Source: a virus
Lineage: Duplodnaviria; Caudoviricetes
DNA: 54,032 nt
IMG/VR virus record: IMGVR_UViG_3300049914_000058
Coordinates: 1-54,032 of that record
Reading direction: 5' to 3' (one strand)
The notes under the pieces are model-generated. The model searched no databases. It was not told the origin of the DNA and worked only from the letters and a program-made list of their open reading frames with translations. Positions 34,864-51,614 of the stretch are shown here, one piece after another. A program made the position numbers and the translations under genes. Numbering within the stretch: the first letter of the stretch is position 1; every line of letters begins with the position of its first letter.

Positions 34864-34873
34864 GAGATGATTT

Positions 34874-35867: not shown

Positions 35868-35895
35868 TTGACAGCTAAAGTTTACTTGCTATACT
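35868..35895 (+). promoter_or_regulatory. Strong sigma70-type promoter for the early arm
   Basis: TTGACA-16-TATACT with an upstream AT-rich tract. Confidence 0.7.
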
Positions 35896-35935
35896 TGCCG
35901 ATGTATTGATTAACCAATTTTTAGGAAATAGACCA

Positions 35936-36222: not shown

Positions 36223-36355
36223 ATATCGAACTGATAAATAATATATTTGCAAAAAAATTTTCTTCCTCCTCCGCGAGCAGGTGCGTTTCTTCACCGGGCG
36301 CAACTGCTCGTTTGAAATCAGAAAGTTAAAACTTTTAAAAATAAAGGAGTGTTCA

Positions 36356-37426
36356 ATGTGTCAACCAGCCGCCTTCGTAGTAGATTTTAAGGAGAAAGTT
36401 ATGAGCGAGCCTGCAAGTTTTGCCGTTACCAAAGCAAACGGAGATTATATTGCGTATTGGTCTGAAAATTCCGACAGCCACGAAGTTATCAAAAAAGAAA
36501 ACGGCCTCGATAAAATAGACATCCCGAATGTTCGGGGTGAGGCAAGACTTATTCCTTGCGAAATTACTCCGCCGAAAAACGACTTTAGACTGCCACTCGA
36601 CCAATGGATTTTTACATCGGATATATCGCCGGAATGGGCGGACATGACAGAGGTAGAAAAAGTATGCAGAAAGGTTCTACCGGACTGGCTGGCGGCAAAT
36701 GTGATATTGCCGAAACAAAAATACGACACTACGAATAAGTATTATGCTGCAATTTGCGGCACGATTAACTATGTCTCTGGCGGCACGATTAACTATGTCT
36801 CTGGCGGCACGATTAACGAAGTCTCTGGCGGCACGATTAACAAAGTCTATGGCGGCACGATTGACTATGTCTCTGGCGGCACGATTGACTATGTCTCTGG
36901 CGGCACGATTAACGAAGTCTCTGGCGGCACGATTAACAAAGTCTCTGGCGGCACGATTAACGAAGTCTATAGCGGCACGATTAACTATGTCTATGGCGGC
37001 ACGATTAACTATGTCTATAGCGGCACGATTGACAAAGTCTCTGGCGGCACGATTAACTATGTCTCTGGCGGCACGATTAACGAAGTCTCTGGCGGCACGA
37101 TTAACTATGTCTATGGCGGCACGATTAACTATGTCTATAGCGGCACGATTGACGAAGTCTATAGCGGCACGATTAACTATGTCTATGGCGGCACGATTAA
37201 CTATGTCTATAGCGGCACGATTGACGAAGTCTCTGGCGGCACGATTAACAAAGTCTATGGCGGCACGATTGACTATGTCTCTGGCGATTTCCCTAAAAAA
37301 ATTACCGGTCATACGACGATTGTGAATTACGGTAGTTTAACTCCTGATATTCTCAAATCTTCAAAAGCCGTAATGATAGACCGTTCAAAAGATACGGTCG
37401 TCTGTTATGTGGGGAAAGACGAATAG
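36356..37426 (+). CDS. Beta-solenoid repeat protein with 22 octapeptide repeats
   Basis: AAGGAG RBS before ATG 36356; N-terminal MC..A-x-F...SDSHE..I...E-x-TPP domain; (G/S)GTI(N/D)(Y/E/K)V(S/Y) x22. Confidence 0.8.
   Translation: MCQPAAFVVDFKEKVMSEPASFAVTKANGDYIAYWSENSDSHEVIKKENGLDKIDIPNVRGEARLIPCEITPPKNDFRLPLDQWIFTSDISPEWADMTEVEKVCRKVLPDWLAANVILPKQKYDTTNKYYAAICGTINYVSGGTINYVSGGTINEVSGGTINKVYGGTIDYVSGGTIDYVSGGTINEVSGGTINKVSGGTINEVYSGTINYVYGGTINYVYSGTIDKVSGGTINYVSGGTINEVSGGTINYVYGGTINYVYSGTIDEVYSGTINYVYGGTINYVYSGTIDEVSGGTINKVYGGTIDYVSGDFPKKITGHTTIVNYGSLTPDILKSSKAVMIDRSKDTVVCYVGKDE
36755..37282 (+). repeat. 24-bp coding tandem repeat, 22 units
   Basis: Consensus RGCGGCACGATTRAC(TAT/GAA/AAA)GTCTMT. 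Confidence 0.95.
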
Positions 37427-37444
37427 TTGTAAATAACAGAGCAA

Positions 37445-37910
37445 GTTCTTTAAAATATAAATATGCCCCCAAAGCAGTTCAATCACGAATTGCTTAAACT
37501 GGCCTGTGCATCACCGGCAGTACCGTTTCTCTCCTCGGCGGTATTGCTAAAACTTCTTCAAACTCCAAAAAAGACGTTTACCCATTTTGTTGAAAATCCA
37601 AAAAACAGGCCAGTATTTTTTAAAATTACTTTGTGGCTTTCATGGTGAGACTGGCCGGAGAAATTTACAAGGAAAGATAATGGCTCCGGCAGTCTTTTTG
37701 AAAAGTAAATACTGGCAACTGGCGTTTAACATACACGAACACTCCAGATTTTAAAAAATAAGCTGATGTTCGGTGCTTATTTATTTGCCAGTATTTTTAA
37801 AAAATTAAAGTCCCGCGAAGGCTCGCCAGAATCGGAAGACACGCAAGCGGATTAGTTACACGACCTTAAGACCTTTGGCTGGTGGGACGGTAAACCGGCT
37901 ATTTTGAGAA
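37445..37910 (+). ncRNA. Array of putative structured ncRNA cassettes
   Basis: Four consecutive stem-closed elements separated by similar T-run/AAAA junctions; no convincing ORF. Confidence 0.45.
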
Positions 37911-37927
37911 GAAAGGAAAGATTAAAA

Positions 37928-38128
37928 ATGCCAGGTGATTTTATTTATTGTTGTTCAAAGTGTTTGCAGAGGAAAATCCATCAGGACTGTTGTTTTCACG
38001 GAAAGGATAGTGAAATTTGTCCTGCCTATACTGAACAATGTAAAAATTTAACATCGAATATTCTACCGCCAGAGGAATACAGTATAGCAAAAGAATCACT
38101 GAAAAGAGCGGAAAGCAAAAAAATATGA
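37928..38128 (+). CDS. Small Cys-rich hypothetical protein
   Basis: AAAGGAAAG RBS; CCSKC...CC..CP..C. Confidence 0.5.
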   Translation: MPGDFIYCCSKCLQRKIHQDCCFHGKDSEICPAYTEQCKNLTSNILPPEEYSIAKESLKRAESKKI

Positions 38129-38257
38129 AAAAGTTTTTTTCGACTATTATAAATTTTATGTTAGGCACGATTATCTTTCTGTTTTTCGTGGGACTTATTT
38201 TGTTCGTTGCATATTACAAATATAGAAAATTTATGTTTTTTTTGAATTATTAAACCT

Positions 38258-38707
38258 ATGAAAATCCTAAAAGCCATCCTGTTGTCGCTTGCCGTTTTAA
38301 TCGGCTATCAACCGGACTGCGAAGCTGTTGAAGTGCAGCCAGATAGTAATTCTCTGTTGAAACTAATTGATGCTATCGCACAAAAGGAATCGGGCGGAAA
38401 TCCTGATGCGGTAAATTGGCAGGAGAATGCTGTCGGCCTGTTACAGATACGACCCATAATGGTTTTAGAAGTCAACCGAATCTGCTCTTTGCTAAAAATC
38501 GATTATGACTTTGAACTTGCTGACCGCAAAAATCCGGCAATGTCAAGACGTATGGCACTTATTTATTTTTCTTTCTGCCAGCAATATTTCAATCTGGACT
38601 TTGAACAACTGGCAAGAAACTGGCAGGGGGGAATTTACGGTTATCGGAAAGTCTGCACTCGGCAATACGCAAAAGACGTTATGAAGATTTACGAGGCGAC
38701 AAAATGA
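38258..38707 (+). CDS. Lysozyme-fold (SLT/transglycosylase-like) protein with signal peptide
   Basis: IDAIAQKESGG-x-P-x-A...AVGLLQI catalytic Glu motif, 'LARNWQGG'; hydrophobic N-terminus. Confidence 0.8.
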   Translation: MKILKAILLSLAVLIGYQPDCEAVEVQPDSNSLLKLIDAIAQKESGGNPDAVNWQENAVGLLQIRPIMVLEVNRICSLLKIDYDFELADRKNPAMSRRMALIYFSFCQQYFNLDFEQLARNWQGGIYGYRKVCTRQYAKDVMKIYEATK

Positions 38708-39021
38708 ACAAGCGATTAAAGATTGAGAAACCTAAATTTACTTGGGCTGAATTAGGACTACTTGAAATCGAAATTGGCAAAATAATAGATTTTTATCACA
38801 AGGAATCTAATCCGATATCAAGTCAAGGAATTGAGGCGTTAGTAGATATTCATTTTAGAATCAGGCAATCAACATATTTTCACACCTTCCCTTCGATTCC
38901 TTTTATGACTAAAGAAAAATATCTAAAATCATTTCCAGAACACACCAAACTTATAGCGATGGCAGACCAGAGGAATGCGGCAATAAGGGATATAGAGAAA
39001 GGTGCTAAAAATGGGTTATAG
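38704..39021 (+). CDS. Hypothetical protein
   Basis: ATGA-coupled ORF. Confidence 0.55.
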   Translation: MNKRLKIEKPKFTWAELGLLEIEIGKIIDFYHKESNPISSQGIEALVDIHFRIRQSTYFHTFPSIPFMTKEKYLKSFPEHTKLIAMADQRNAAIRDIEKGAKNGL

Positions 39022-39370
39022 AGAAAGAATCGAAAAAGTAGTAATCGCAATGTTTAACGCCGACAGATTATTAACTTCTATTTTAGATGAGGATGCCCTG
39101 ACTTTGGCTGATGGCAGTATGAGGTTTAGTAGTGAATGGAATGGTCTATGTGATATAGCTATGGATTTACTTGGAATGCCAAAAGACAATACCACTGACT
39201 ATGATTATTCACTTAGCGTAAATTGGCCTAAGGGGTGTTTCTGTAGAGATTTTTATATAGAGGGTTGGATAGATGGATTCAAAAATGGTCAAGAATTTAT
39301 AGATTCTTGTTATTCCGCATTAAAAGAAGTTGCCGATAACAACGAAACTTTTACAGAACCAAAAATTTGA
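39011..39370 (+). CDS. Hypothetical protein
   Basis: AAAGGTG RBS; 'G-x-P-x-DNT...FCRD' motif. Confidence 0.6.
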   Translation: MGYRERIEKVVIAMFNADRLLTSILDEDALTLADGSMRFSSEWNGLCDIAMDLLGMPKDNTTDYDYSLSVNWPKGCFCRDFYIEGWIDGFKNGQEFIDSCYSALKEVADNNETFTEPKI

Positions 39371-39492
39371 GAGGGCAAAATGAAATCACAAAAGACCCTT
39401 AAAAGAATAGCACAGCGAGACCAAGAATTAGCACGGAGGAAATACGGCAAATCGGTAGACAAAATTGAAAAGATTTATAAGGCGAAAATGTA

Positions 39493-39801
39493 ATGCCGGA
39501 TAAGCAAGGCCAGTTAGTAATGGACTTTACGCAGAACTGGCGAAGGTCTGACCCGAAAACTTCCGAGGATGCCGGTAAGAAAATTGAGGCAATTGGCAAA
39601 GCGGAAAGAGACAGACGAATAATCTTGGCTTGTCTGCGACAACACAATGGCTCGACCGACAAGGAACTGGCAGTATATCTTAAAGGTATTTTAACCTATG
39701 ATGAAATTCACAAACGTATGAGGGAATTGGAATACAAAAGTCTTATTAAAAAAAATGTCAATATCAGACGTGAGCATTGTTGCACAAGGTGGATACTTTA
39801 A
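39493..39801 (+). CDS. Winged-HTH DNA-binding protein
   Basis: 'R-x-SDP-x-TS-x-x-A' followed by 'T-x-x-ELA...I-x-KR-x-x-EL' HTH. Confidence 0.65.
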   Translation: MPDKQGQLVMDFTQNWRRSDPKTSEDAGKKIEAIGKAERDRRIILACLRQHNGSTDKELAVYLKGILTYDEIHKRMRELEYKSLIKKNVNIRREHCCTRWIL

Positions 39802-40295
39802 TGAAGCTAATCCCATTAACGCAAGGATTATTTGCTAAAGTCGATGATGCCGATTTTGAATGGCTAAATGAAATGAAATGGCGAGCAATGGGCAAAAAAT
39901 CAAATCATAATTGCTATTATGCGATTACAGGCGATTGCAATCCCAAAAGAGGGCAAAAAACAATTTTAATGCACAGACTTATTATGAAAGCTACTGATGG
40001 CGTAGAGGTTGACCACAGAGACAATAACGGACTGAACAATCAGCGTTATAACTTAAGAGTTAGCACTCACGCGGAAAATTTGCGAAATCAAAAAATTCAA
40101 GCAAATAATAAATCTTCAAAATTTAAGGGCGTAAGCTTTTTCGGTGCAAACAAAAGCAATCCTTGGACGGCACAAATTCATTTTCACAAAAAGAAAATTC
40201 ACTTGGGTTATTTCAAATTTGAATCTGACGCCGCGAAAGCTTATGACGAGAAAGCAAAAGAGTTGTTTGGGGAATTTGCTCATACCAATTTTTAA
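39801..40295 (+). CDS. HNH-AP2 homing endonuclease 2
   Basis: IPLTQG-x-FA-x-VDD; VDHRDNNGLNNQRYNLR; SSKFKGV; TAATG-coupled to the upstream gene. Confidence 0.92.
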   Translation: MKLIPLTQGLFAKVDDADFEWLNEMKWRAMGKKSNHNCYYAITGDCNPKRGQKTILMHRLIMKATDGVEVDHRDNNGLNNQRYNLRVSTHAENLRNQKIQANNKSSKFKGVSFFGANKSNPWTAQIHFHKKKIHLGYFKFESDAAKAYDEKAKELFGEFAHTNF

Positions 40296-40306
40296 GGAAA
40301 CCTAAA

Positions 40307-42310
40307 ATGGAAATTAAAATTATTAGTTTGAAAGGTGAAGATTTCAAAGGTTTAAAATATTTTGAAATGAATCTTGACGGTGGAAGTGCAGTTATCAAAG
40401 CTCAAAACGGAGCCGGAAAAACAACTGTTTACGATATGTTTCTCTGGTTGTTATTCAACAAAGACTCTACCGGCTCGACAGATTTTAACCTGCGGCCTCT
40501 GGACGAAAGCAATCAGCCGATTAAAGGGCTTGTATTGTCGGTTACGGCAGAGCTTGAACTTGATGGTGTATCTCATATTTTCAAGAAGGAACATCACGAA
40601 AGAATAGTCAAAGACCAAATCAAGGGTTACGAGACTTTATGCTCCATAGATGAAGTGCCTAAACTCGCCAAAGAATACGCAGATTACATCAAAGAGATTG
40701 TTCCAGAAACTACCTTTAAAGTGCTGACAAACCTGCGACATTTCAACGAGGGTATAACGTGGAAAGAACGCAGAATGGTTCTTCTTGATATTGCCGGTGA
40801 AATAGGAAATCCGGACGGCTTTGACGATTTACTTGCCGCTCTTAACGGCAGGTCAATGGATGATTACAAAAAAGTTTTAGCCACGCAGAAAACAAAACTC
40901 AAAGATGAACAGGCCGAAATCAACCCGCGTATCGATGAACTCCAAAAAAGCTTAACGGCTTATGCCGGGACCGACAAGAAGAAACTCGAAAAGAAACGGC
41001 TTGACGTTCAGGCGGATATTACACGACTCAATGAGCAGCAACGAATATTATTGACACACGAAAAAGACAGGCAGGAGCAAATCGAGAACATCAACGCGGT
41101 AAAACTCCAACGGCAACAGCGGGAACTGGAACTCAAAAACGATACGTCCGGCTCGGCAAAACTGCTCGAGGAAAAAGGAAGTCTTGAAAGTGCCGTTTCG
41201 GAACGCAAAAATGCAGTTATGGCGGCACAGTCCGTTATCTCGAGCGCGAAAGCCGAACTCATTAGCAAGCAAAATGAACTCAGCAGGCTTACGGCAAACA
41301 TAAACGAAATCCGTGATAGATACAACAAAGCGTCTGATGCTCCTACAGATAATACCTGTTATGCCTGTAAACAAAAATTACCAGCCGACAAGATAGAACA
41401 ACTTGAGAAAAAGCGAAAAGCGGACCTTGCTAAAATTATCACCGAAGGCAATAAGATTAAAGAAGAAGTTGATACTTGCACATCTACTATTGCAGACCTT
41501 GAGACTGAACTTGCAAACCAACAGAAAGAACTCGAAAAAGCTCAAATCACCTTAAAGGAAGCAGAAACAACTAAGACAGAACGCTTTGCAGAGATTGATA
41601 AGCTTATCAAAAATAAACAACCGAAAAATCCTAAAGCCGACCCGGCATGGCAGGACCTCGGCGTTGAAATATCAAGGCTTGAAAAAGAACTCGGTGAATC
41701 TGTTGCAGTTCAACTACAGAAAATTGAAGCCGACCGCAAAACGAAACAGGATGAGTTGGCCGTCCTCAATAAATCTCTGGCTCAGGCAGATCAGGCTAAA
41801 CAGGCAGGAGAGAGAATAGCCGAACTTGAGCAGCAGGAAAAAGACCTGGCACAAAAAATAGCAGACATTGAAAAGCAGCTTGCAGATATAGCTAATTACA
41901 ATATGGCCGAAAGCAAACTGATTGAATCATCGGTAAACGGCAAATTCAAACATGTCAAGTTTAAGCTCTTTAATTTTCTGCTTAATGGTGAAATAGAGCC
42001 TTGTTGTGAAGCAATACTGAACGGCGTGCCTTACCCTGATATGAGTTATGGACAGAGGATATTTGTCGGCATTGATATTATCAACATATTGTCGGCTCAT
42101 TACGGCATGAGCGTTCCTTTGTTCATCGACAACAGCGAAGGTATGACATTGCCTATCGAAGCTGAAAGCCAAACCATAGAACTGTTCGCACAAAAAGGCA
42201 TATCAACTTTGACGGTAGAGAAAATTGAAGCACCCGTCAAGTCGGTAAAAACAGCAAAATCAAATTCTAAATCCAGCAAGAAGGGAGAATTATTTAATGT
42301 CAACGCTTAA
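40307..42310 (+). CDS. SbcC/Rad50-like (SMC-type) ATPase
   Basis: FKG, Walker A NGAGKTT, long coiled coil with CYAC zinc hook, signature MSYGQ, Walker B LFIDNSE. Confidence 0.88.
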   Translation: MEIKIISLKGEDFKGLKYFEMNLDGGSAVIKAQNGAGKTTVYDMFLWLLFNKDSTGSTDFNLRPLDESNQPIKGLVLSVTAELELDGVSHIFKKEHHERIVKDQIKGYETLCSIDEVPKLAKEYADYIKEIVPETTFKVLTNLRHFNEGITWKERRMVLLDIAGEIGNPDGFDDLLAALNGRSMDDYKKVLATQKTKLKDEQAEINPRIDELQKSLTAYAGTDKKKLEKKRLDVQADITRLNEQQRILLTHEKDRQEQIENINAVKLQRQQRELELKNDTSGSAKLLEEKGSLESAVSERKNAVMAAQSVISSAKAELISKQNELSRLTANINEIRDRYNKASDAPTDNTCYACKQKLPADKIEQLEKKRKADLAKIITEGNKIKEEVDTCTSTIADLETELANQQKELEKAQITLKEAETTKTERFAEIDKLIKNKQPKNPKADPAWQDLGVEISRLEKELGESVAVQLQKIEADRKTKQDELAVLNKSLAQADQAKQAGERIAELEQQEKDLAQKIADIEKQLADIANYNMAESKLIESSVNGKFKHVKFKLFNFLLNGEIEPCCEAILNGVPYPDMSYGQRIFVGIDIINILSAHYGMSVPLFIDNSEGMTLPIEAESQTIELFAQKGISTLTVEKIEAPVKSVKTAKSNSKSSKKGELFNVNA

Positions 42311-43220
42311 TCAAAATCAGTTAGCCCCAAAAACTAAACTTGAAACAATCAAAGACGGTCTTATGTCGCAAGGTGCGATCGCCTTGTTCAAGGACAATCT
42401 GCCCAATGCGACGGGCAAGCAAGCAGAGGAAATGGCAAGGCGATTTGCGAAAATGACCTATACCGCTATTTGTCAGAATCCGTCTTTGCAGGATTGCAGC
42501 ATTAGCAGTATCGTTAGAGCCGCAAGCATATCTGCCAGCCTCGACCTTGACATCGACCCACGCGGCCTTGCTTATCTTGTGCCTTACAAAAACAACAAAA
42601 CCAATAGCATAGAGGCTCAATTCCAAATTGGCTATCTCGGCCTTATGGAATTAGCCTACCGTTCCGGCAAAATTAAAGCTATCTCTGCTCATTGTGTTTA
42701 TGAGTCCGAAAAAGGCAAAATCGAAATAATGAGAATTGATGGTAGATACACCGTTAAGCATCCATTCAGTTATGAACCGCCAACTGGCAAGATTATCGCC
42801 GTCTATGCTTCTGCTGAAATTGAAGGGCTTGGACCGCAAACAATAGTTCTGCGAACTGATGAGGTAGAAAAATTCAGGAAATCTTCAAAAGCTCCGAACT
42901 CTCCTGCATGGACGAACTTTCCAGAGGCTATGTATAAAAAAACTGCTATCCGGCAACTGGCAAAATTCCTGCCAAAATCCATCCTTGAGGATTTCTCAAA
43001 GGGTGCTGCCATTGATGAACAGGAAACCTTTGTTGAAGCAGCGACGGCAACCCAAAGCGTAATTGAGGGTCAGGCGGGTAGCCAAGTAATAAACGCAGAC
43101 TTTGAGAAAAAAATAGAGAAACCCAAAAAGGGCGGTAAAAAGCAAGTAGCATCGGAAGATAAGACGATTGCTGCACCGTCCAGTAATCAAAAAGAACAGC
43201 CAAAGCCGAACTTTCTATAG
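42297..43220 (+). CDS. recT: RecT-family ssDNA-annealing recombinase
   Basis: NP-x-L-x-x-C...AYLVPY...AQFQIGY-x-GL-x-ELA-x-RSG...W....M-x-KKT-x-IR-x-L-x-K-x-LP-x-S. Confidence 0.93.
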   Translation: MSTLNQNQLAPKTKLETIKDGLMSQGAIALFKDNLPNATGKQAEEMARRFAKMTYTAICQNPSLQDCSISSIVRAASISASLDLDIDPRGLAYLVPYKNNKTNSIEAQFQIGYLGLMELAYRSGKIKAISAHCVYESEKGKIEIMRIDGRYTVKHPFSYEPPTGKIIAVYASAEIEGLGPQTIVLRTDEVEKFRKSSKAPNSPAWTNFPEAMYKKTAIRQLAKFLPKSILEDFSKGAAIDEQETFVEAATATQSVIEGQAGSQVINADFEKKIEKPKKGGKKQVASEDKTIAAPSSNQKEQPKPNFL

Positions 43221-43226
43221 GATGTT

Positions 43227-43943
43227 ATGAAATTTGAACAACTATATTCCAGCTCAAGCGGCAATTTGTATATTGTCGAATCGTCCAATAACAAACGTCT
43301 CTTATTAGAGGCGGGCATTACTTGGAAGAAGCTCCAAAAGGCCTTGAAATACGACCTGTCAAATATAGAAGCGTGCTTCGTTACGCACAGCCACGCAGAC
43401 CACAGCAAGGCTATATATGATGTGGTCGGTGCGGGTATTGAGGTATATGCCAGTGAGGAAACTTTATCCTTTATGGGTCTGAATATGCACCGCAGGACGA
43501 AGATAATTAAAGATAAAGACTTAATCCGGCTCAAGGATTTTCAAGTATTTGCTTTTTCGCTCAACCATGATGCAGATGGTACTTTAGGTTTTATAGTCCG
43601 GGCAGTTGAAGAAAACGAATATCTGCTTTTTGCACCGGATACCAGCTTTATTACTCAAAGATTTAGCCAGAAGTTCAATATCATTGCCTTGGAGTGCTCC
43701 TTTGATAAAACCATTCTGCAGAACAGAGTAGATACAAACGACATAAACGAAACTCTTGCTAAAAGACTTCTAACATCACACTTAGAAAAATCTGAAACAA
43801 TGCGATACATCGAGAAATTCTGCGACATAAGCAAGTTAACCCAGATCAACCTTCTTCATTTAAGCAAAAATAATATTGATGCCAAAAAGGTACAAAAAGA
43901 GTTTCAAGATAAATTTTTAATTGAAACGATTATTTGTTCTTGA
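43227..43943 (+). CDS. Metallo-beta-lactamase-fold hydrolase (probable exonuclease partner of RecT)
   Basis: SSSSGN-x-Y, THSHADH, HDA, LLHLS. Confidence 0.88.
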   Translation: MKFEQLYSSSSGNLYIVESSNNKRLLLEAGITWKKLQKALKYDLSNIEACFVTHSHADHSKAIYDVVGAGIEVYASEETLSFMGLNMHRRTKIIKDKDLIRLKDFQVFAFSLNHDADGTLGFIVRAVEENEYLLFAPDTSFITQRFSQKFNIIALECSFDKTILQNRVDTNDINETLAKRLLTSHLEKSETMRYIEKFCDISKLTQINLLHLSKNNIDAKKVQKEFQDKFLIETIICS

Positions 43944-44090
43944 CAACCTTATTTTTTCATAGGATAATAAGGGCGTGAATAGTAACAGTAACAATTCGAC
44001 TCCTAATAATTATGGCGGGTTTGGTCTGTCTGTAAGGACGACCGCACTTCCTGTTACTGGAACTGTTCACAAAACCCGCCAATTTTTTGG
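43940..44090 (+). promoter_or_regulatory. Promoter and structured leader (GTG at +1, terminator) for HNH-AP2 gene 3
   Basis: TTGACA-17-GATAAT; GTG 43975 at the expected +1; TGGCGGGTTT / AAACCCGCCA stem plus ATTTTTT. Confidence 0.7.
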
Positions 44091-44100
44091 AGACAATCCT

Positions 44101-44601
44101 ATGAAGAAAATCCCACTCTCACAAGAACAGTTTGCTTTGGTTGACGATGAGGATTTCGCAGAATTGTCAAAGCATAAATGGTACGCCTTCCGGCGAAATA
44201 AAGAATATTCCTATTATGCTATTAGAAATATTGGCATAAAACCTAATCGTGGCAGTGAGAGGATGCACAATGTAATTATGAAGCCCCCAAAAGGGTTTGA
44301 GGTCGACCACAAAGACGGCAATGGGTTAAATAATCAAAGATACAATTTAAGAGTTTGTTCGCGTTCGCAAAATATGGGTAACACAAGAGGACAACGCAGA
44401 AATTCATCAAGATATAAAGGTGTTCACTGGGATTCTCGAAACAATAATTGGAGACCTATGATTTGTAAAAATTATAAAATATTAAATTTGGGTTCATTCA
44501 AAAGCGAAGTTGAAGCCGCCAAAGCCTACGATGCAAAAGCCAAAGAATTATATGGTGAATTTGCTTGTTTAAATTTCCCCATTAAGGTGGTGATTAAATG
44601 A
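44101..44601 (+). CDS. HNH-AP2 homing endonuclease 3 (in-frame upstream GTG at 43975 possible)
   Basis: IPLSQ-x-x-FALVDDED; VDHKDGNGLNNQRYNLR; SSRYKGV; GGAGA RBS. Confidence 0.92.
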   Translation: MKKIPLSQEQFALVDDEDFAELSKHKWYAFRRNKEYSYYAIRNIGIKPNRGSERMHNVIMKPPKGFEVDHKDGNGLNNQRYNLRVCSRSQNMGNTRGQRRNSSRYKGVHWDSRNNNWRPMICKNYKILNLGSFKSEVEAAKAYDAKAKELYGEFACLNFPIKVVIK

Positions 44602-44656
44602 CCTGCCCCTTTTGCCAAAAATCCGAACCTGCTTTACCAGACAAGGTGATAGTGAA

Positions 44657-44842
44657 ATGAGTATCTTTGAAAAACTTGCAAAACGATATAATGATATAGT
44701 TGGACAATCTCCGGATGAATCTTTCTTATCTTGGTTGGCAGGTTTTGGAATACCAGATACCGATGAGGCTTTGCATGAACTCTGGGATAATAAGGAACTA
44801 TGGAACGATTTAAAAGAAGAATACAACAATGAAACCTTGTGA
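44657..44842 (+). CDS. Hypothetical protein
   Basis: AAGGTG RBS before MSIFEKL. Confidence 0.5.
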   Translation: MSIFEKLAKRYNDIVGQSPDESFLSWLAGFGIPDTDEALHELWDNKELWNDLKEEYNNETL

Positions 44843-44936
44843 TACTTGCGCAAAGAAAAAATACGGCTGTTGGTGTAAAGCCTATTCTGAATGGCTTTAT
44901 GATGATAGTTTGCCAGAACCGATTTTAGAAAAGAAA

Positions 44937-44960
44937 GGCAATGAATCATTTGACGCACCA
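44937..44960 (+). repeat. Orphan copy of the IS1595 terminal inverted repeat
   Basis: GGCAATGAATCATTTGACGCACCA: 17 nt identical to 53505-53521 and 20/24 identical to the right TIR. Confidence 0.75.
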
Positions 44961-44971
44961 AAGGGAAATTG

Positions 44972-45721
44972 ATGGCTGGAATAGATAAATATATAAATAC
45001 GACAATACGGGCCGACTGCAATATCTTAAATTTGTATGCCGGAATAGGCGGTAATCGCAAATTATGGGGAGACAACCATAAGATAACCGCAATAGAAATA
45101 GACAGCAATATTGCTAAAGCGTATCAGCGATTATACCCCAATGACACGGTTGTAATTGGGGACGCGCACGAATATCTATTGAACCATTACGCAGAATTTG
45201 ATTTTATTTGGAGTAGCCCGCCCTGTCCGAGCCATAGTAGGGCGAGATTTGGCTTTGGCGTTTGTGGACATGGATATAAGTATATTTATCCTGATATGAC
45301 ATTGTATCAAGAAGTTATTTTATTAAAACATATATTCAAAGGCTTGTTTTGTGTTGAAAATGTAATCCCGTACTATAATTATCTTATCAATCCCAGTGTG
45401 GTTATAGGTCGCCACGCCTATTGGAGTAATTTTTTTATACCATTCAAGAAAATTAGCACTAATAATATGATTGCTGGAAATACAAAGCCACCACACAAAT
45501 TATCTTCATTTTATGTAACGGGGGAGAGGCCTTATTTGGAAGAATTGTATGGACTTAATTTGGGAGAATGTGCCGGATTTGACAAAAGAAAAGTTTTAAG
45601 AAATGCGGTTGACCCAGAAATAGGAAAATATATTTTAGACGCAGCAATGAATGTTCCCGTTAAAGAAGCAAGAAAAGGACAAAAGGCGTTATTTGAATTA
45701 ACGGAAAAAGGAAAGACTTAA
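44972..45721 (+). CDS. C5-cytosine DNA methyltransferase (compact, orphan)
   Basis: Motif I LNLYAGIGG, IV SPPC-x-SHS, VI ENV, X LRNAV. Confidence 0.88.
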   Translation: MAGIDKYINTTIRADCNILNLYAGIGGNRKLWGDNHKITAIEIDSNIAKAYQRLYPNDTVVIGDAHEYLLNHYAEFDFIWSSPPCPSHSRARFGFGVCGHGYKYIYPDMTLYQEVILLKHIFKGLFCVENVIPYYNYLINPSVVIGRHAYWSNFFIPFKKISTNNMIAGNTKPPHKLSSFYVTGERPYLEELYGLNLGECAGFDKRKVLRNAVDPEIGKYILDAAMNVPVKEARKGQKALFELTEKGKT

Positions 45722-45737
45722 AAGGATTTATTCACGG

Positions 45738-46226
45738 ATGAACAAAATAACTTATTATATTCAAAAACTTGACGGGCAACCGCCAGTAAAAGAGTGGGGG
45801 TCAAATAAGCCGATTGATGATTTTTGGAATACCGCACCGGCAGGGCGGTACACAGTCGAAATCAAACGCATCCCTAAAAAGAAAACGTGGAAACAATGTA
45901 AGGCTATTTTTGGTGTTGCCTTTCAAAATATAATCGCACAGGCAAATGATTTGGGGATTGATGTGTCATACTTACTGAAATATCTATTGCAGGATAATAT
46001 CCCGAAAGGGCAGGGATTAACAACAGATTTCCTTATCGAATTGGCATATATAATCTGCCCGACAAATGACGAAGAAGGCCACAGAATAACTTTAAGCAAA
46101 ATGAGTACGGTTCAGGCGATGAAACTTTATGAGGGTTTGCAAAATATTTTTGCGCCGATAGGAATAAACATACCAGACCCCGACCCTGAATGGTTCAAGA
46201 AACAAAGCAAGGAAACTGTAAAATGA
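45738..46226 (+). CDS. NinB/Orf-like hypothetical protein
   Basis: 'Y-x-VEIK...K-x-T-x-x-Q...FG' and 'S-x-M-x-T......E.....GI-x-IP-x-P' pattern. Confidence 0.5.
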   Translation: MNKITYYIQKLDGQPPVKEWGSNKPIDDFWNTAPAGRYTVEIKRIPKKKTWKQCKAIFGVAFQNIIAQANDLGIDVSYLLKYLLQDNIPKGQGLTTDFLIELAYIICPTNDEEGHRITLSKMSTVQAMKLYEGLQNIFAPIGINIPDPDPEWFKKQSKETVK

Positions 46227-46903
46227 GTAAAGAGCCTATGCACTTTGATTTGGTTCCGGCAGATTTTACCGGCGATATTGACTTCCAGATGATGACTGCC
46301 GAGCAACGGGGAATATACTGCACTGTCATTTTTTATATGTATCAGAACCGAGGCTATTGCAACCTTGATAGGGTAGCTATAGCCACCCTATGTAGGTGCA
46401 ATGGAAGTGCCGAAAACTTTGAAAACATTTGGCCTTGTGTTGAAAAAAAGTTTTTAAAAACTCAAAAAGGTTTGACGCACTCAAGAGTTCAAAAAGAATA
46501 TACACAAGCAAAACGGCGTATGCAAGTGGCTGTAAATGCTGGAATTAAAGGGGCAAAAGAAAGATGGGGTAGCCATAGCGACCCTAATGGGGAGCCTGTA
46601 GCTAAACAAAGTAAAGTAAAGGTAAGTAAAGTAAAGGTAAGTAAAGTATTCATTGCGCCTACTATTGAACAAATAAAAAACTATATCAAACAGAACAACT
46701 ACGACGTGGATGCAGAGAAGTTTTTAAAGTATTTCACCGAAAGCAACTGGGTAGATTCTAAAGGTAATAAGGTTAAAAACTGGAAACAAAAAATTATTAC
46801 TTGGAGTGGTAATCATGCAGGCAATAGAAAAAATGCAAACACCAGTGAATCTCGGCGAAGTTCTTTTGCCGAGCAAGAGTCAAGTGTCGGCAAGACAATC
46901 TAA
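46223..46903 (+). CDS. Replication initiator (YdaU/DUF1376-like N-terminus)
   Basis: 'DF..D...MTAEQRG-x-Y', and C-terminal 'F-x-x-PT-x-EQ...D-x-EKF-x-x-YF...W......VKNWK....TW'; upstream of a DnaC-like gene. Confidence 0.8.
   Translation: MSKEPMHFDLVPADFTGDIDFQMMTAEQRGIYCTVIFYMYQNRGYCNLDRVAIATLCRCNGSAENFENIWPCVEKKFLKTQKGLTHSRVQKEYTQAKRRMQVAVNAGIKGAKERWGSHSDPNGEPVAKQSKVKVSKVKVSKVFIAPTIEQIKNYIKQNNYDVDAEKFLKYFTESNWVDSKGNKVKNWKQKIITWSGNHAGNRKNANTSESRRSSFAEQESSVGKTI
46368..46650. promoter_or_regulatory. Putative replication origin (iterons plus A-rich repeats) inside the initiator gene
   Basis: Near-palindrome ATAGGGTAGCTATAGCCACCCTAT (46368-46391), related copy at 46564-46588, half copy to 46602, then AAGTAAAGTAAAGGT repeats. 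Confidence 0.55.
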
Positions 46904-47543
46904 TTTTATTTGTGAGATATGTAAAATCAGATTTGCCGATGGTCTGCTTGGTAAAATTTGTTTAGTTTGCCAGCATAAAATCTCTTTTGAAAAACTACCA
47001 CCAGAAGAACAAAAAAAACAACTTTTGGTGATTGTGCCGGAAAGATATATCAATGCTGAGATTAAAGATTTAAAACCTGACCTGCAAAAAGCATTTGCGG
47101 CAGAAAACGACACAGGCATTTTACTTTGGGGTGAGCCAGGCAGAGGCAAAACTTATGCGATGTGTGCTTTGGTTAAAAAGTATATGGCCGATGGATTCCT
47201 TGTCCGGCGTGTTCATTACGAAGAACTTTGTTTCCGATTACGGGACACTTTTAATCCTAAAGCGACACAAACTGAATGGGGTATTATCGAACCGCTTTTA
47301 AACTGCGACAAGTTATTTATCGAAGATGTCGGCACAAGCAAGAGTCTTGGCAGTCAAGAATCAGATTTTAGTCTTCGGACATTTATTGTTTTGCTGGATA
47401 TGCGACTTGAAAGATTAAGACCGACGTTTATTACGACCAACAAAAGCGTGGAAAACTTAGGTAAGAGCTTTGACGATAGGGTCGGCGACAGGTTGAGAAT
47501 GTTTCAGGTGTTTAAGATGAGCGGAGATAGTTTGAGAAAATAA
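46815..47543 (+). CDS. DnaC/IstB-like AAA+ helicase loader
   Basis: Zn-finger CEIC...CLVC, VPERY, Walker A GEPGRGKT, Walker B LFIEDVG, PTFITTN, DRL. Confidence 0.88.
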   Translation: MQAIEKMQTPVNLGEVLLPSKSQVSARQSNFICEICKIRFADGLLGKICLVCQHKISFEKLPPEEQKKQLLVIVPERYINAEIKDLKPDLQKAFAAENDTGILLWGEPGRGKTYAMCALVKKYMADGFLVRRVHYEELCFRLRDTFNPKATQTEWGIIEPLLNCDKLFIEDVGTSKSLGSQESDFSLRTFIVLLDMRLERLRPTFITTNKSVENLGKSFDDRVGDRLRMFQVFKMSGDSLRK

Positions 47544-47938
47544 TGGAAACGGTTGAATTTTTAAAAAATCTGACTTATGCCCAATACTTAGAAACAAAAT
47601 GGTGGCAGTTTACAAGGCAACGGCGATTGGAGTTTGATAAATATAAATGTTGCAAATGTCAAACTTCGCACGAATTAGAAGCCCATCATTTAACCTATGA
47701 AAGATTGGGCGATGAAAATGTCAAGACAGATTTGATTACATTGTGCGATAGATGTCATAATGACACGCATTATTTTGAAGAACTTAAAAAATCTACCGCA
47801 ACGGAAATTATGATAAAGCGTCAATTGCCGATAACACGGCAAGATTATGAATATGTCAAAACAATAGTCAAAGGCGGACTTTCGATAATAAAATTTAACG
47901 GTGAAGATATGCGATTAAAGCAGAAAGCCACAAGATGA
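47543..47938 (+). CDS. HNH endonuclease (McrA-type)
   Basis: Y-x-x-YL-x-T-x-x-W...D-x-YKC-x-x-C...L-x-x-HH-x-TY...DLITLC-x-x-CH. Confidence 0.85.
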   Translation: METVEFLKNLTYAQYLETKWWQFTRQRRLEFDKYKCCKCQTSHELEAHHLTYERLGDENVKTDLITLCDRCHNDTHYFEELKKSTATEIMIKRQLPITRQDYEYVKTIVKGGLSIIKFNGEDMRLKQKATR

Positions 47939-47954
47939 AAATAAGGAATAGGGA

Positions 47955-48206
47955 ATGAGAAAAGACAAAACGGTAAAATTTCTTAATAATTACGAGAAAT
48001 ACAGAAACGCAATCCGCGACCTTATTCTTGGAAATGTGAATATATCAGTTCGAGAGGGCGAGCGTGAACTCTGGAATTGCAATACCGGCGAATGGAAGGA
48101 TAAAAAATTTCAACATTTTAAGGTCGTGCAAGAATTTAATGTAGAAACATTTTTGGCCGACTTATTACCATTACTTAACAAAATCTCGGAGATACTTGAA
48201 AAATGA
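47955..48206 (+). CDS. Hypothetical protein
   Basis: RBS plus 83-aa ORF. Confidence 0.55.
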   Translation: MRKDKTVKFLNNYEKYRNAIRDLILGNVNISVREGERELWNCNTGEWKDKKFQHFKVVQEFNVETFLADLLPLLNKISEILEK

Positions 48207-48615
48207 AAGCGATATTAGAAAAAGTGGACTTCAACAAAGTACTGCAAAACCTCATTTGCGATAACTGTGAGAGAGGCAAAAAATGAGTAAGATAAAATTA
48301 AGAATTTATTGGGCAGGATTTTCTGATGGAAAATTTCACCGATGGCCTGATGGCGAATTAAACATTTATAGTTCAAGAAAAAAAGCCCGAAGATGCTATC
48401 AAGATGTTCGGCCCGTAAAGATTATTGAGGTGAAAAAATGAAAAAGATTTTAAAATCTGAAATTAAATTATTAGCAAAGTGGTCTGCCGAAGCGAGGTAT
48501 TGTCTTAAAACGGCCCTGGATACGGAGAAACCAGAACGAAAGCGAATGGTTGCCTCTTTGATGTGTGATAAATTTTTACGCTCAATTCAGATGTTTGCAG
48601 AGGAGAACAGTTAAA

Positions 48616-49065
48616 ATGAAACTGCCTGACCACGCTAAAATGCCGGATATGCGAATACGAAAAAAGTATGGCAATCAATTAACGCACGCCACTGTTGGTG
48701 GCAAGGAATATGACTTTAGAAGCAAAGCCGAATTGAAACTTGCGAAATTTTTACAGCTTTTAAAAGAGATGAAATATCACAAGGACTGGTCTTATGAGAG
48801 TATGAATTTTAAGTTTCCTGATAGTTCTTGGCTCATAGATTTTACCGTCCGAAACAATGATGATACTTTTGAACATTATGAATATAAAGGTTACGTTGAA
48901 CAGAATACCAGAAAAAAATTACAGTTATTAAATAAGTATTTTCCGCAAGCCCAGGTAACAATGGTCTTTGCAAGTAAAAAGCAACTAAAACGGCTCGGCG
49001 CAAGAGCGATAAGTTTTTGTAAAAGAGTATGTTTATTATCAGAACTTACTCACGGTATAATTTAA
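48616..49065 (+). CDS. PD-(D/E)XK endonuclease (DUF1064-like, possible resolvase)
   Basis: KYGN...FRSK-x-E...W-x-YE...DF-x-V...E-x-KG. Confidence 0.75.
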   Translation: MKLPDHAKMPDMRIRKKYGNQLTHATVGGKEYDFRSKAELKLAKFLQLLKEMKYHKDWSYESMNFKFPDSSWLIDFTVRNNDDTFEHYEYKGYVEQNTRKKLQLLNKYFPQAQVTMVFASKKQLKRLGARAISFCKRVCLLSELTHGII

Positions 49066-49092
49066 AACTCTAATTTAGAAAGGTGATTTATT

Positions 49093-49359
49093 ATGAAAAA
49101 GTTAATTATAATTTTGTTTGTATTGTTTCTGATTGGTTGCGAAGACGAGCAACAACAGGCTAATTTTATCAACAACAACGAGGTGAATAACACAGATAAT
49201 GAAATGAGTTATTTAGTAACCCCTATTTGGACGCAGACTCCTGAGATAATAGCCAAAAAAGCGGAATTAAAAAAGCAAGGGGTGAAGCGCTACAGAATAT
49301 ACAAAGATGGAACAGTCGTAACCGCAGATGTAAATACTCGCCGAGGATTAAACAAGTGA
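49093..49359 (+). CDS. Lipoprotein
   Basis: MKKLIIILFVLFLIG-C. Confidence 0.7.
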   Translation: MKKLIIILFVLFLIGCEDEQQQANFINNNEVNNTDNEMSYLVTPIWTQTPEIIAKKAELKKQGVKRYRIYKDGTVVTADVNTRRGLNK

Positions 49360-49892
49360 GTTGGGCCAAAAGACTTGGTGTAATAAAAGTACGGAGTAAC
49401 TATTGGTCTGATGGCCATAGGCACATATTGTACTACTGCGCAAAGAGTATCATTCGACAGTTTCCCTTTGTTATGGAAATAAATGAACTGGTTAATGAGG
49501 CTTGGTTGCATTATATGAGATACAGAGAAGAAACGCAACCAATAGACATTAAACGATGCAAAAGTATTATGTTCAGGTATGTAAAGTCGCATCTTGAACA
49601 CGGAGAAGCATCTTTAGACTCTTTAATAGCAGAAATGAAAGTAGCAAGGTTTAATGAAGATTGTAGTGGGGAAACACCAGAGTTGGCCGTCGAGGAATTT
49701 GACAACTTTCAGGAATTATACGATTACTGTTTTAATTTCGCACCAGCGGTCAAACATTACAGGGAAATCTTTGAACTGAAATTTAAAGACCTGAAAAGTG
49801 ACCGTCGAATAAGTAAAGAAGTCGGCATGGCAAGAGAAACCGTAGCGGCTGAACTTCAAGGTCTGATGACAGAAATAGGAAAAGCGGGATAA
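49356..49892 (+). CDS. Sigma70/ECF-like transcription factor
   Basis: Region-2-like 'E-x-NELVNEAWL' and C-terminal HTH 'IFELKF...S-x-RRISKEVGMARETV'. Confidence 0.6.
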   Translation: MSWAKRLGVIKVRSNYWSDGHRHILYYCAKSIIRQFPFVMEINELVNEAWLHYMRYREETQPIDIKRCKSIMFRYVKSHLEHGEASLDSLIAEMKVARFNEDCSGETPELAVEEFDNFQELYDYCFNFAPAVKHYREIFELKFKDLKSDRRISKEVGMARETVAAELQGLMTEIGKAG

Positions 49893-49913
49893 CTAAATTT
49901 GAAAGGTGATTTT

Positions 49914-50090
49914 ATGGAGATAAAAAGTACAATGCCGTTAGGTGATTGGAAGATATTGAAAGGACAGTTGGACGACAACAAATGGCCGGAATGTGATTTG
50001 CGCAGAAAAATATGCGATATAATTTATGTGTTAGCTAAAACTTTCACACCAGATCTGTATTATTCAGGGGAAGAAAGGACTAATTTATGA
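49914..50090 (+). CDS. Hypothetical protein
   Basis: AAAGGTG RBS before MEIKST. Confidence 0.5.
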   Translation: MEIKSTMPLGDWKILKGQLDDNKWPECDLRRKICDIIYVLAKTFTPDLYYSGEERTNL

Positions 50091-50521
50091 AAAGTGCAGC
50101 GATTTTAACGATTGAAGATGCAGGTAAAATGACAACAGCAGAGAAAAAGAGAATAGCATATTGGCTTCGTCAACAGGCAAAAGGGTTGATTAAGGACGGA
50201 CACCTTTACGCAAAGAAAACAACGATAAGATATTTATATTGTCTTGTAATGTTGGTTATGTTGTTTGTGGCTGGGTGTGTAAGTGCCTATTACGGCCACA
50301 AGATGAAATATGTAATAGTTAATAACAAACCTGTTTTATTGAGCGATGAAAAAGTTATCAAGTATTCTTCCTGCAACGTAAACATTCAAGGCACTGGACT
50401 GGACATATCTTCTCCGAATGATGTAAAAATTACAATGAAAAGCAGAGATATGGTTGCGGACCCGAATTCGGGTTATGCTGAAGCAGAGATGATAAAAGGA
50501 TTCTTCTGGCCTATGCCGTAA
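50087..50521 (+). CDS. Hypothetical protein with an internal lipobox-like segment
   Basis: ~50-aa basic N-domain followed by CLVMLVMLFVAG-C. Confidence 0.6.
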   Translation: MKSAAILTIEDAGKMTTAEKKRIAYWLRQQAKGLIKDGHLYAKKTTIRYLYCLVMLVMLFVAGCVSAYYGHKMKYVIVNNKPVLLSDEKVIKYSSCNVNIQGTGLDISSPNDVKITMKSRDMVADPNSGYAEAEMIKGFFWPMP

Positions 50522-50528
50522 GGAAAAA

Positions 50529-51023
50529 ATGACTGAATACGATTTGCAATATGTGATTATACAAAATTGGCATACTACCAATAATTTGCTTGTACCCAAT
50601 ATCGAAGGCGGCTATGGCGAAATGGATGTATTACGACTAACGAAATCTGGCTATGCTTATGAGTATGAAGTGAAAATATCTAATGCCGATTTTAATGCAG
50701 ACAAGAAAAAAGAAGTAAAACATAGGTCATACCAAACGGTTTTTGAAAATAAACCACTCCTTAATTATTTTGGTCAGCCGAAAAGTAAAAAAGGAATACC
50801 GAATTATTTTATATATGTTGCACCGAAAGGGGTCTTGTTGGCTGATAAAATACCAAAATATGCAGGGTTTTACGAGGTGGGTGATGGTCATATTCGTTGT
50901 ACCATCGACGCACCAAAAATCCATAGTGAAAAATTTCAAGATTACTGGAAGGCAAAAGTGCTTTATTCGCTACATACCAAATATCTTTATCATTATTGGT
51001 TTAAACTTAAACCTGTGCCGTAA
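50529..51023 (+). CDS. PD-(D/E)XK nuclease-fold protein (MmcB-like)
   Basis: E-x-DVL-x-LTKSGY-x-YEYEVKIS-x-ADF-x-AD-x-KK; PNYF-x-YV-x-P; P-x-YAG. Confidence 0.75.
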   Translation: MTEYDLQYVIIQNWHTTNNLLVPNIEGGYGEMDVLRLTKSGYAYEYEVKISNADFNADKKKEVKHRSYQTVFENKPLLNYFGQPKSKKGIPNYFIYVAPKGVLLADKIPKYAGFYEVGDGHIRCTIDAPKIHSEKFQDYWKAKVLYSLHTKYLYHYWFKLKPVP

Positions 51024-51034
51024 GGAGTAGAAAA

Positions 51035-51613
51035 ATGGAAATATGGACACAAAAGGATGTAGACGCTGTAAAGCCAGATAGTGTTGGCGTTAGACATTAT
51101 CCAGCAGATAGCAGCTTTGCGAAGTGGTGCAGCTTTGCGAAGGGGTGTAGCTTTGCGGAGTGGTGCAGCTTTGCGGAGTGGTGCAGCTTTGCGGAGGGGT
51201 GCAGCTTTGCGGAGGGGTGCAGCTTTGCGGAGTGGTGCAGCTTTGCGGAGGGGTGCAGCTTTGCGGAGTGGTGCAGCTTTGCGAAGGGGTGCAGCTTTGC
51301 GGAGTGGTGCAGCTTTGCGAAGGGGTGCAGCTTTGCGGAGTGGTGCAACTTTAAGGAGAGGTGTGAAGCCATTTCTCCATTTTGGAGTTTTGTTTATGAA
51401 CCATCTTTCAAAACGAAAGGTATGATATTACCTCCGCGTGCCTGTCGTGAATTCTGGCAGGAAAAACTTGCGAAATTTAACCTTGATATCATAACGGATA
51501 ATCCTTGTTATGAAGAAATAGCTTCAATAATAAAACCGAAGTTGGCAGAAATTCTTAAAGATAAAAACTGGACAAAATGTGAAAGAAGAATCCTCGAAAG
51601 CTGGAGTAAATAA
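51035..51613 (+). CDS. Hexapeptide-repeat (left-handed beta-helix-like) protein
   Basis: AAGGAG RBS; CSFA(E/K)(W/G) x13 plus one degenerate unit. Confidence 0.8.
   Translation: MEIWTQKDVDAVKPDSVGVRHYPADSSFAKWCSFAKGCSFAEWCSFAEWCSFAEGCSFAEGCSFAEWCSFAEGCSFAEWCSFAKGCSFAEWCSFAKGCSFAEWCNFKERCEAISPFWSFVYEPSFKTKGMILPPRACREFWQEKLAKFNLDIITDNPCYEEIASIIKPKLAEILKDKNWTKCERRILESWSK
51110..51361 (+). repeat. 18-bp coding tandem repeat, ~14 units
   Basis: Consensus TGCAGCTTTGCGRAGKGG. Confidence 0.95.
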
Positions 51614-51614
51614 A

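Follow-up and report, generated by a model that had tools for sequence, protein, structure and literature searches.

A candidate transcription attenuator of conserved design and variable sequence ahead of predicted HNH-AP2 endonuclease genes in phages

Free-standing homing endonuclease genes are very common in phages, and their restraint is known in detail for few T-even cases. How might such a gene be held in check elsewhere? The question is raised by the uncultured virus record IMGVR_UViG_3300049914_000058 (Duplodnaviria; Caudoviricetes), which was analysed over its whole length of 54,032 bases and is called the window below. Between a metallo-beta-lactamase-fold gene and HNH gene 3, a predicted endonuclease gene, positions 43940-44100 hold a promoter and a leader in which two alternative helices compete. 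This gene-3 leader is a real feature, conserved in design beyond chance. With moderate confidence we read it as a cis-acting transcription attenuator that forms part of a mobile promoter-leader-gene cassette, mostly with an HNH-AP2 homing endonuclease gene. Its parts are these:

43940-43968, + strand: predicted sigma70-type promoter, with the -35 TTGACA at 43940-43945, 17 nucleotides (nt), and the -10 GATAAT at 43963-43968.
43975-43977, + strand: GTG start codon 6 nt past the -10, at the predicted first transcribed base, a putative leaderless start.
43975-43993, + strand: 5' strand of helix P1 (the putative antiterminator), in two parts, 43975-43983 and 43986-43993.
43994-44012, + strand: spacer J1, A-rich and G-poor, part of which joins the 5' arm of T in a weak hairpin in the minimum-energy fold.
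44013-44022, + strand: 5' arm of stem T (the putative terminator).
44023-44043, + strand: inner hairpin P3, capped by a GUAA tetraloop, within the loop of T.
44052-44070, + strand: 3' strand of P1, in the loop of T, ending 1 nt ahead of the 3' arm of T.
44072-44088, + strand: 3' arm of T (44072-44081), one A, and the U-tract T6 (44083-44088).
44089-44092, + strand: Shine-Dalgarno sequence (SD) GGAG, 8 nt ahead of the HNH ATG at 44101.
43975-44100, + strand: stop-free frame from the GTG, in frame with HNH gene 3 and adding 42 codons (open reading frame (ORF) 43975-44601).

All of the elements that the original prediction had listed for this leader, namely the promoter, its spacing, the in-frame GTG, the pairing, the stem and the hairpin, were located both by reading and by script. 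The -35 runs over the TGA at 43941-43943 that ends the metallo-beta-lactamase-fold gene, and the promoter, with a match of 11/12, is the best of 62 promoter-like sites in 36000-54032. P1 joins GTGAATAGT (43975-43983) to ACTGTTCAC (44062-44070), with one G.U pair, and in its second part CAGTAACA (43986-43993) to TGTTACTG (44052-44059). Stem T pairs TGGCGGGTTT (44013-44022) with AAACCCGCCA (44072-44081) over 10 base pairs (bp), 6 of them G-C. The G+C-rich stem and the U-tract of an intrinsic terminator are thus both present, the latter as one A and then T6. The short loop of 3-8 nt is not: the loop of T measures 49 nt and holds a hairpin and the 3' strand of P1, which is why a scan for terminators with loops of 3-8 nt omits this stem. 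If J1 is taken to begin at 43984, right after the 9-bp part of P1, so that 43984-43993 are included, it has 2 G in 29 nt.

The gene-3 leader folds at -42.6 kcal/mol (z = -3.93; 1 of 200 shuffles was equally good). In the minimum-energy fold the 5' end is paired with 44052-70 and the U-tailed stem is unformed. The letters of a further hairpin that had been proposed here, TTCC/GGAA with the loop TGUUACU, are present, but the same fold reads them better as the 3' strand of the long helix with the 5' end.

Does the design stand alone? The window holds a second leader with an identical order of parts, ahead of HNH gene 1:

34736-34873, + strand: gene-1 leader, with the -35 at 34736-34741, the -10 at 34758-34763, then 6 nt and ATG 34770.
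34771-34781 with 34832-34842, + strand: helix P1 of the gene-1 leader.
34793-34807 with 34843-34857, + strand: stem T of the gene-1 leader, followed by a U-tract.
34816-34830, + strand: hairpin P3 of the gene-1 leader.
34770-34865, + strand: upstream open reading frame (uORF) of the gene-1 leader, stopping at 34863-65.

We scanned the window with a descriptor that asks for a U-tailed stem (score at least 8) whose loop holds, beside the 3' arm, the complement (score at least 8.5) of a segment further upstream. Of 718 T-run sites on the + strand it passed two places alone, the leaders of gene 1 and gene 3; on the - strand it found three A+T-rich low-complexity places among 1569 sites. No leader design was found by the descriptor before HNH gene 2, whose ATG at 39801 shares bases with the preceding ORF's stop (TAATG), in agreement with the earlier description of gene 2 as coupled and lacking a leader. 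A canonical terminator at 34700-34735 (GGCGGATAAC...TTATCCGCC and a T run) closes the gene ahead of the gene-1 promoter, and the gene-1 cassette is therefore insulated on its upstream side.

To look beyond the window, we gathered HNH-AP2 relatives from 80 viral and 80 genome loci, with gene starts placed by profile. A strict descriptor, in which a 5' segment pairs inside the loop of a U-tailed stem, was applied to the unique 200-nt regions upstream of genes whose profile position 1 is a start codon. It passed 14 of 84 unique HNH upstream regions; the controls gave 2 passes in 2520 dinucleotide shuffles and 2 in 647 windows taken elsewhere in these loci. Together with the scan of the 718 sites, the shuffles bear out the argument that two such leaders in one window exceed chance.

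Nineteen leaders, looser cases included, were laid out by hand, and three more (L030, L103 and L034) were read. Their order is constant: promoter, segment a, G-poor spacer, arm b, a small capped hairpin, a', b', U-tract and gene start, where a pairs with a' in P1 and b with b' in T. The sequences of a/a' and b/b' are wholly different between copies and their complementarity is retained. The helices cross, and in 10 of the 19 leaders a' and b' lie 0-3 nt apart, so that P1 and T cannot coexist there. Over 18 leaders, the J1 spacer has 8% G as against 23% in whole leaders. The stem ends 16-19 nt before the gene start in sigma70-type leaders and 9-19 nt before it over all 19; 10 of 13 sigma70-type leaders combine a promoter match of 9-11 of 12 with a start codon 6-7 nt past the -10. 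Six others (L067, L088, L040, L047, L095 and L054) have the same helix layout with a TAnnTTTG-like box, seen by eye, in place of the -35 and -10, a few bases before segment a. This box we take to be the Bacteroidota promoter type, and the design appears, from sequence, to have been re-fitted to another kind of promoter.

Two covariance models were made: R1, which drew on four leaders and described P1 and the inner hairpin alone, and R2, which is broader. In the 390,794 bases of the loci and the window, R1 gave 12 sense matches at E <=0.0014, the gene-1 leader included; three further listed matches were weak or antisense. Although R1 was built without it, the gene-1 leader scored 27.7 bits (E 5e-6) when the window was searched alone with filters off, and was the sole match below E 0.01. 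R1 also found, at 22.4 bits and E 0.0014, the leader of the related locus L017, which occupies the same site as the gene-3 leader.

Covariation was counted on a 13-sequence alignment fitted to R1, with P1, the hairpin, and T added as a pseudoknot. Paired cells made up 92.9% of 326, as against 69.2% after column shuffles (0 of 500 reached the observed value), a control that overstates significance because the aligned leaders are related, and 32-44% when partners were slid by 1-3 columns, a control free of that problem. Both sides had changed in 24 of 29 pairs (9 of 11 in P1, 12 of 14 in T and 3 of 4 in hairpin P3). As T is absent from the model, its support is independent of the fitting. The alignment has 27 G.U cells and 6 A.C cells; thus the pairing belongs to RNA of the gene's strand (+). 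The check by covariation that the original prediction had set is answered by these compensatory changes, which occur in both helices across 13 relative leaders.

The gene-3 leader has the architecture of this family throughout: promoter, start codon at the predicted +1, the order a-b-a'-b', U-tract, SD and gene. Its long P1 (17-20 bp) is common to L017, L196 and L197, and the 5' strands of these four align. The claim of the same design in different sequence holds in a literal sense, for the architecture matches while the gene-3 leader escapes both models. Common descent with the family is likely.

The 5' end of the leaders carries a second conserved trait. ATG fills the first three columns in 12 of the 13 aligned rows, and most other P1 columns vary. 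Among 17 sigma70-type leaders, 15 have no stop in the frame of the start codon at the predicted +1 until 12 nt or less from the gene ATG, L017:2306 and L186 being the exceptions; of the other frames, 8 of 34 reach as far. Eight of the 17 frames, that of gene 3 included, are fused in frame to the gene, and seven stop between -11 and +20, two of them as ATGA overlaps. The leader peptides are mutually dissimilar, and no common codon run was seen by eye in the 17 leaders. Therefore it is translation that is conserved, not its product.

How would the two helices behave as the RNA is made? For RNA made only as far as a', the minimum-energy fold contains P1 in 18 of 18 leaders. Folded at full length, 15 of the 18 have T as their ground state (gene 3, L017 and L066 do not), and once the first 18 nt are made unavailable for pairing, all 18 form T. 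The mechanism we propose runs as follows. A host-type promoter would start the RNA at, or within one base of, GTG 43975. Segment a, the first ~20 bases, would pair with a' (44052-70) inside the loop of the stem formed by b (44013-22) and b' (44072-81), which six U follow; with a' adjoining b', P1 and T would be mutually exclusive. On naked RNA P1 would form first, because a' is transcribed before b', and would block the terminator, so that RNA polymerase proceeds into the HNH gene. If instead the 5' end were occupied, T would form and transcription would stop at 44083-88. A ribosome sitting on the 5'-terminal start codon is the probable occupant, to judge from three features: the conservation of that codon at the predicted +1, a G-poor spacer without structure behind it, and the open frame, which is conserved too. 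The same ribosome may then continue to the endonuclease start, by frame fusion or by coupling, as the tie between frame end and gene start suggests. We infer the transcription start, termination at the U-tract, the ribosome as effector and the direction of its effect.

A more ambitious version of this proposal is offered tentatively, and we think it rather doubtful: that the leaders are a portable ribosome-loading gate for selfish endonuclease genes, which would act only on transcripts from their own promoter, since these alone would bear a 5'-terminal start codon, would let ribosome loading there choose between antiterminator and terminator and pass the same ribosome on to the endonuclease start, would depend on neither an SD, a peptide nor a particular host, and would form a new attenuator class across host promoter types.

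Some other modes of action were considered and set aside. Promoter-specific antitermination, with upstream sequence of read-through RNA pairing with segment a, found no support, as P1 still forms in 14 of 18 leaders at each of the extensions tried (40, 80 and 150 nt); in WG1, L068, L088 and L040 it is lost at one extension or more. Translational control by sequestration of the SD found no support either, as, in 11 leaders, SD accessibility has no consistent difference between the two states; in the gene-3 leader the mean unpaired probability from SD to AUG is 0.58 in one and 0.59 in the other. Processing of P1 by RNase III was dropped as a general role, as only the long-P1 subgroup reaches 19-20 bp. 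An H-type pseudoknot was dropped for most copies, as pseudoknot geometry would not let the 0-3 nt that join a' to b' in 10 of 19 copies span a helix of 9-20 bp; such a pseudoknot is conceivable where the link is 5-14 nt.

Does the leader travel with the gene? We read by eye the DNA that follows the metallo-beta-lactamase-fold gene in ten loci. In L017, whose protein is 54% identical, a promoter, a leader and an HNH gene stand at the same site after the same gene. There the TTGACA overlaps the stop of a gene that likewise ends ...IICS, and after it come a -10, 6 nt, ATG and a structured leader whose stem is U-tailed, then GGAGA and an HNH gene that shares 51% identity with gene 3. In the other 9 of the 10 loci the next gene follows directly, and by eye neither leader nor HNH gene was seen between them; L015 and L021 have the same sequence there. 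Identity between window and L017 has a local peak of 30/40 at 43907-43946, and as other bins reach 28-32/40 this rise at the left end of the cassette is suggestive only.

Four phage records were also searched with R2, which gave ten sense matches at E <=3.2e-8. Seven of the ten directly precede ORFs that match the HNH-AP2 profile (E <=9e-55). Conversely, the four records contain 9 full-length HNH-AP2 matches, and 7 of the 9 have a model-detected leader directly upstream. Within whole records the linkage to HNH is still strong. In L197 the gene behind the leader encodes an HTH_36 protein, and an HNH gene truncated at its N-terminus lies further on; the L193 leader has no clear ORF downstream. 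The ORF behind the leader in L196 (G003:7221-8035) keeps, by eye, the first 12 HNH residues and then diverges for ~220 residues, with a fragment of the AP2 end of an HNH gene next; it looks like an HNH gene broken by insertion or replacement. Other genes behind a leader encode a 300-residue protein without a Pfam match (L063; an assignment as ParB-like was dropped, since Pfam gave no match), a 145-residue protein likewise without one (L080:2686-2790), and a 51-residue zinc-ribbon-like protein (L186). The exceptions look in part like sites where the HNH gene was lost or replaced and the leader retained.

The claim that HNH cassettes travel with their own RNA control module therefore stands in part. 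It is supported by the covarying design before HNH-AP2 genes in many unrelated phage contigs, by the linkage of 7 in 9 and by L017, and it fails as a claim of exclusivity, because the module also precedes the HTH_36 protein, the zinc-ribbon-like protein and the two proteins without a Pfam match. The comparison of relatives, by which the leader was expected to move with the HNH gene, came out on both sides: L017 has both and nine other loci have neither, whereas one variant-phage contig, described below, amounts to a refutation in its weak form.

A record of 31 kb, G002, to which L064 belongs, has an unusual density of these elements, with four leader copies, three full and two partial HNH-AP2 matches within ~8 kb. 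Among genome contigs (L105-L183, mostly Planctomycetota metagenome-assembled genomes (MAGs)), many HNH-AP2 relatives are without Met at the usual first position. Their extended frames are of two recurring kinds, ...C.NF... and ...YRRLRYGY.FRRIPLT..., which suggests that these relatives carry real N-terminal domains.

The reading of 43940-44100 as an attenuator on a mobile HNH cassette has to be weighed against several points that tell the other way. The variant-phage contig, from run X2 (674 letters, depth 48.7), matches 43545-44093 with 19 differences, of which the 17 listed all lie in 43682-43814, and then continues for 125 letters unlike the window; it keeps the leader, which can therefore stand without the gene-3 HNH sequence behind it. 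In runs X2-X5, contigs leave parts of 33500-47000 uncovered, and nothing is concluded from these gaps. Members of the family precede non-HNH genes too, and as the loci were gathered through HNH homology the apparent linkage is inflated. The gene-3 leader has no R1 match and scores 5.2 bits with R2 on 251 bases, so that its place in the family rests on architecture, position and ~11 of 16 5'-strand bases identical to L017 by eye. Its P1 state, at -36.9 kcal/mol, is more stable than its T state, at -33.2 kcal/mol, and termination may therefore be inefficient in it. The effect of a ribosome is ambiguous in direction, since an initiating one should favour T and an elongating one would melt it. GTG is a poor leaderless start in E. 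coli. Finally, the 5' frames of the six TAnnTTTG-type leaders have 4-16 codons, and a long uORF is thus not universal.

What else could such a leader be? It might be a constitutive insulator cassette of the PeSL or moron kind, whose stem stops transcription from upstream, whose promoter restarts it, and in which P1 only protects the 5' end of the mRNA and nothing is sensed. PeSL cassettes of T4-type phages do put a stem-loop that terminates, an SD and a start codon together with a strong sigma70-like promoter and travel with ORFans (PMC2839356), and our leaders likewise stand before several kinds of gene and in several copies per phage record. Here, however, the terminator lies downstream of the promoter and would act on the cassette's own transcripts, both of the exclusive helices are kept by compensatory change, for which a plain terminator has no need, and the 5' start codon with its open frame is left unexplained; we consider the insulator unlikely. 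Still less probable is a small RNA gene, its ~110-nt transcript from promoter to terminator acting in trans and the HNH gene being reached through leak-through only. A strong promoter followed within ~110 nt by a U-tailed stem, and a stable fold, would suit it, and small RNAs derived from attenuators are reportedly known. Yet the element always lies shortly upstream of an SD-led start and in the same orientation (16-19 nt in the sigma70 type), a/a' differ in every copy and offer no common seed, the open frame is tied to the downstream start, and no Rfam small-RNA family matched.

The leader might also be plain coding sequence, with the HNH protein starting at GTG 43975 as a 208-residue form with 42 extra residues and the RNA structure incidental. 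That the frame is open and in frame in the gene-3 leader and seven others speaks for this, as do the real N-terminal extensions that HNH relatives in Planctomycetota MAGs appear to carry. But the extension peptides are without similarity, in seven leaders the frame meets its stop shortly ahead of the gene start or overlapping it, being closed or out of frame, the helices covary at the RNA level, Met at profile position 1 is retained by every short-form relative and an SD by the aligned sigma70-type leaders, so that we hold this account to be very improbable. Least credible of all is an element acting as DNA, be it a recombination or homing site or a hairpin of single-stranded DNA. The cassette does lie at a boundary of presence and absence, and PeSL stem-loops were proposed as recombination sites (PMC2839356). 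The excess of G.U over A.C, 27 to 6, nevertheless makes the pairing strand-specific, and U-tract, SD and promoter all point the same way as the gene. The attenuator thus stays our preferred reading.

The surroundings of the leader are those of a complete-looking record (CheckV 100%) whose long ORFs lie almost all on the + strand. Three of its genes encode HNH_3 proteins with an AP2-like tail, and the order around the third is RecT, metallo-beta-lactamase-fold gene, HNH gene 3 and a cytosine methylase gene:

34874-35377, + strand: HNH gene 1.
39801-40295, + strand: HNH gene 2, its start overlapping the upstream stop, without a leader.
43227-43943: metallo-beta-lactamase-fold gene, upstream of the gene-3 leader, with its TGA stop at 43941-43943.
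44101-44601, + strand: HNH gene 3, 166 residues, with HNH_3 and an AP2-like domain.

HNH gene 3 matches Pfam HNH_3 at 36.2 bits (cut-off 24.8), from which the endonuclease role is predicted; its AP2 match of 26.9 bits lies under the cut-off of 33.3. Similar DNA was found in none of 50,697 phage records, and the IMG/VR relatives are distant only (36-37% identity in the flanking gene, 38-50% in HNH). Exact scans gave 0 matches to the core of the gene-3 leader in viral contigs and 0 to the stem pattern in metagenome contigs. In the window, ARAGORN found 0 tRNA or tmRNA genes and the families of Rfam 15 gave 0 matches at the gathering score; at E up to 10, 43900-44150 had 5 Rfam matches of 11-19 bits, with cut-offs of 41-80.

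The end of HNH gene 3 (44586-44601, ...VVIK, its stop overlapping the next ATG) repeats the end of the metallo-beta-lactamase-fold gene in the HNH-less locus L015 (L015:2355-2372), with 15 identical bases by eye, and a small ORF at 44598-44660 ends in a similar string (44644-44660). The repeated string looks like the right-hand junction of an insertion. Beside RecT and downstream of HNH gene 2, positions 40307-42310 encode a 667-residue ATPase with a long coiled-coil and weak AAA_15 and AAA_23 matches.

A recurrent covarying switch on one widespread HNH-AP2 lineage would give a testable general answer to how endonucleases are restrained. The switch occupies ~100 nt and appears to use ordinary host RNA polymerase. 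It would also be a compact natural example of an attenuator in which the antiterminator strand includes the predicted 5'-terminal start codon. For annotation of metagenomic phages, the leader marks the boundaries of the cassette.

Among known systems, the leader-peptide attenuators (trp, his and pyrBI) come close, with a short leader frame, alternative helices and a U-tailed stem just before the regulated gene. The leader family has mutually exclusive, covarying helices and a leader ORF open in 15 of 17 cases; in it, regulatory codons or a conserved peptide were not found by eye, nor was a leader ORF led by an SD. The pyrBI leader frame runs through the terminator, and attenuators with leaderless uORFs have reportedly been described in mycobacteria. 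Unlike leader-peptide attenuators, the HNH leaders have their start codon at the predicted +1 without an SD, an antiterminator strand that contains this codon, and a frame fused or coupled to the downstream gene, and the regulated gene is a mobile endonuclease gene instead of a biosynthetic operon.

Another structured RNA that directly follows a promoter and precedes mobile-element genes is int-alpA (RF02996). In L024 (L024:1411-1479; by eye also in L060), what follows a TTGACA/TACAAT promoter before an HNH-AP2 gene is int-alpA itself, at 41.1 bits against a cut-off of 35.8, the only match when 20 related loci were compared with Rfam. It thus occupies the equivalent place in L024; it differs in having no match in the window, and the L024 element is, by eye, without a U-tailed stem.

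Endonuclease genes of T-even phages (I-TevI, segB, and mobE of T4 and Aeh1) have their own promoters, internal terminators, RNase E sites and hairpins that sequester the ribosome-binding site (PMC2988022). They resemble the HNH leaders in that own promoters, terminators and hairpins restrict expression and that structure depends on where the transcript starts. The T-even hairpin keeps the ribosome-binding site sequestered and is relieved by a late promoter inside it, and the terminators are intragenic (PMC2988022), whereas in the HNH leaders the competing helix is a terminator, and SD accessibility in 11 leaders is without consistent difference between states. The PeSL of RB49 and phi1 and the lambdoid morons share a cassette of promoter, stem-loop, SD and start codon that comes with accessory genes, many per genome; their stem-loop mostly lies upstream of or in the promoter, and no alternative helix or uORF is described for them (PMC2839356); the likeness drawn here is one of layout. 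E. coli 5'-uAUG mRNAs also combine a 5'-terminal AUG with an SD-led main gene, bind 70S ribosomes and in some cases affect downstream expression; their description includes no conserved switch structure or terminator (PMC4965119), and the 5' terminus of the HNH leaders is predicted only, from the 6-nt spacing to the -10.

No description of a promoter-attenuator leader of HNH genes was found in searches of full-text literature or in the main text of phage-RNA catalogue papers, whose supplementary tables may list the motif. None of the known systems compared combines all features of the HNH leaders, and the label that suits the gene-3 leader best is that of a new transcription-attenuator variant borne on a mobile promoter-gene cassette.

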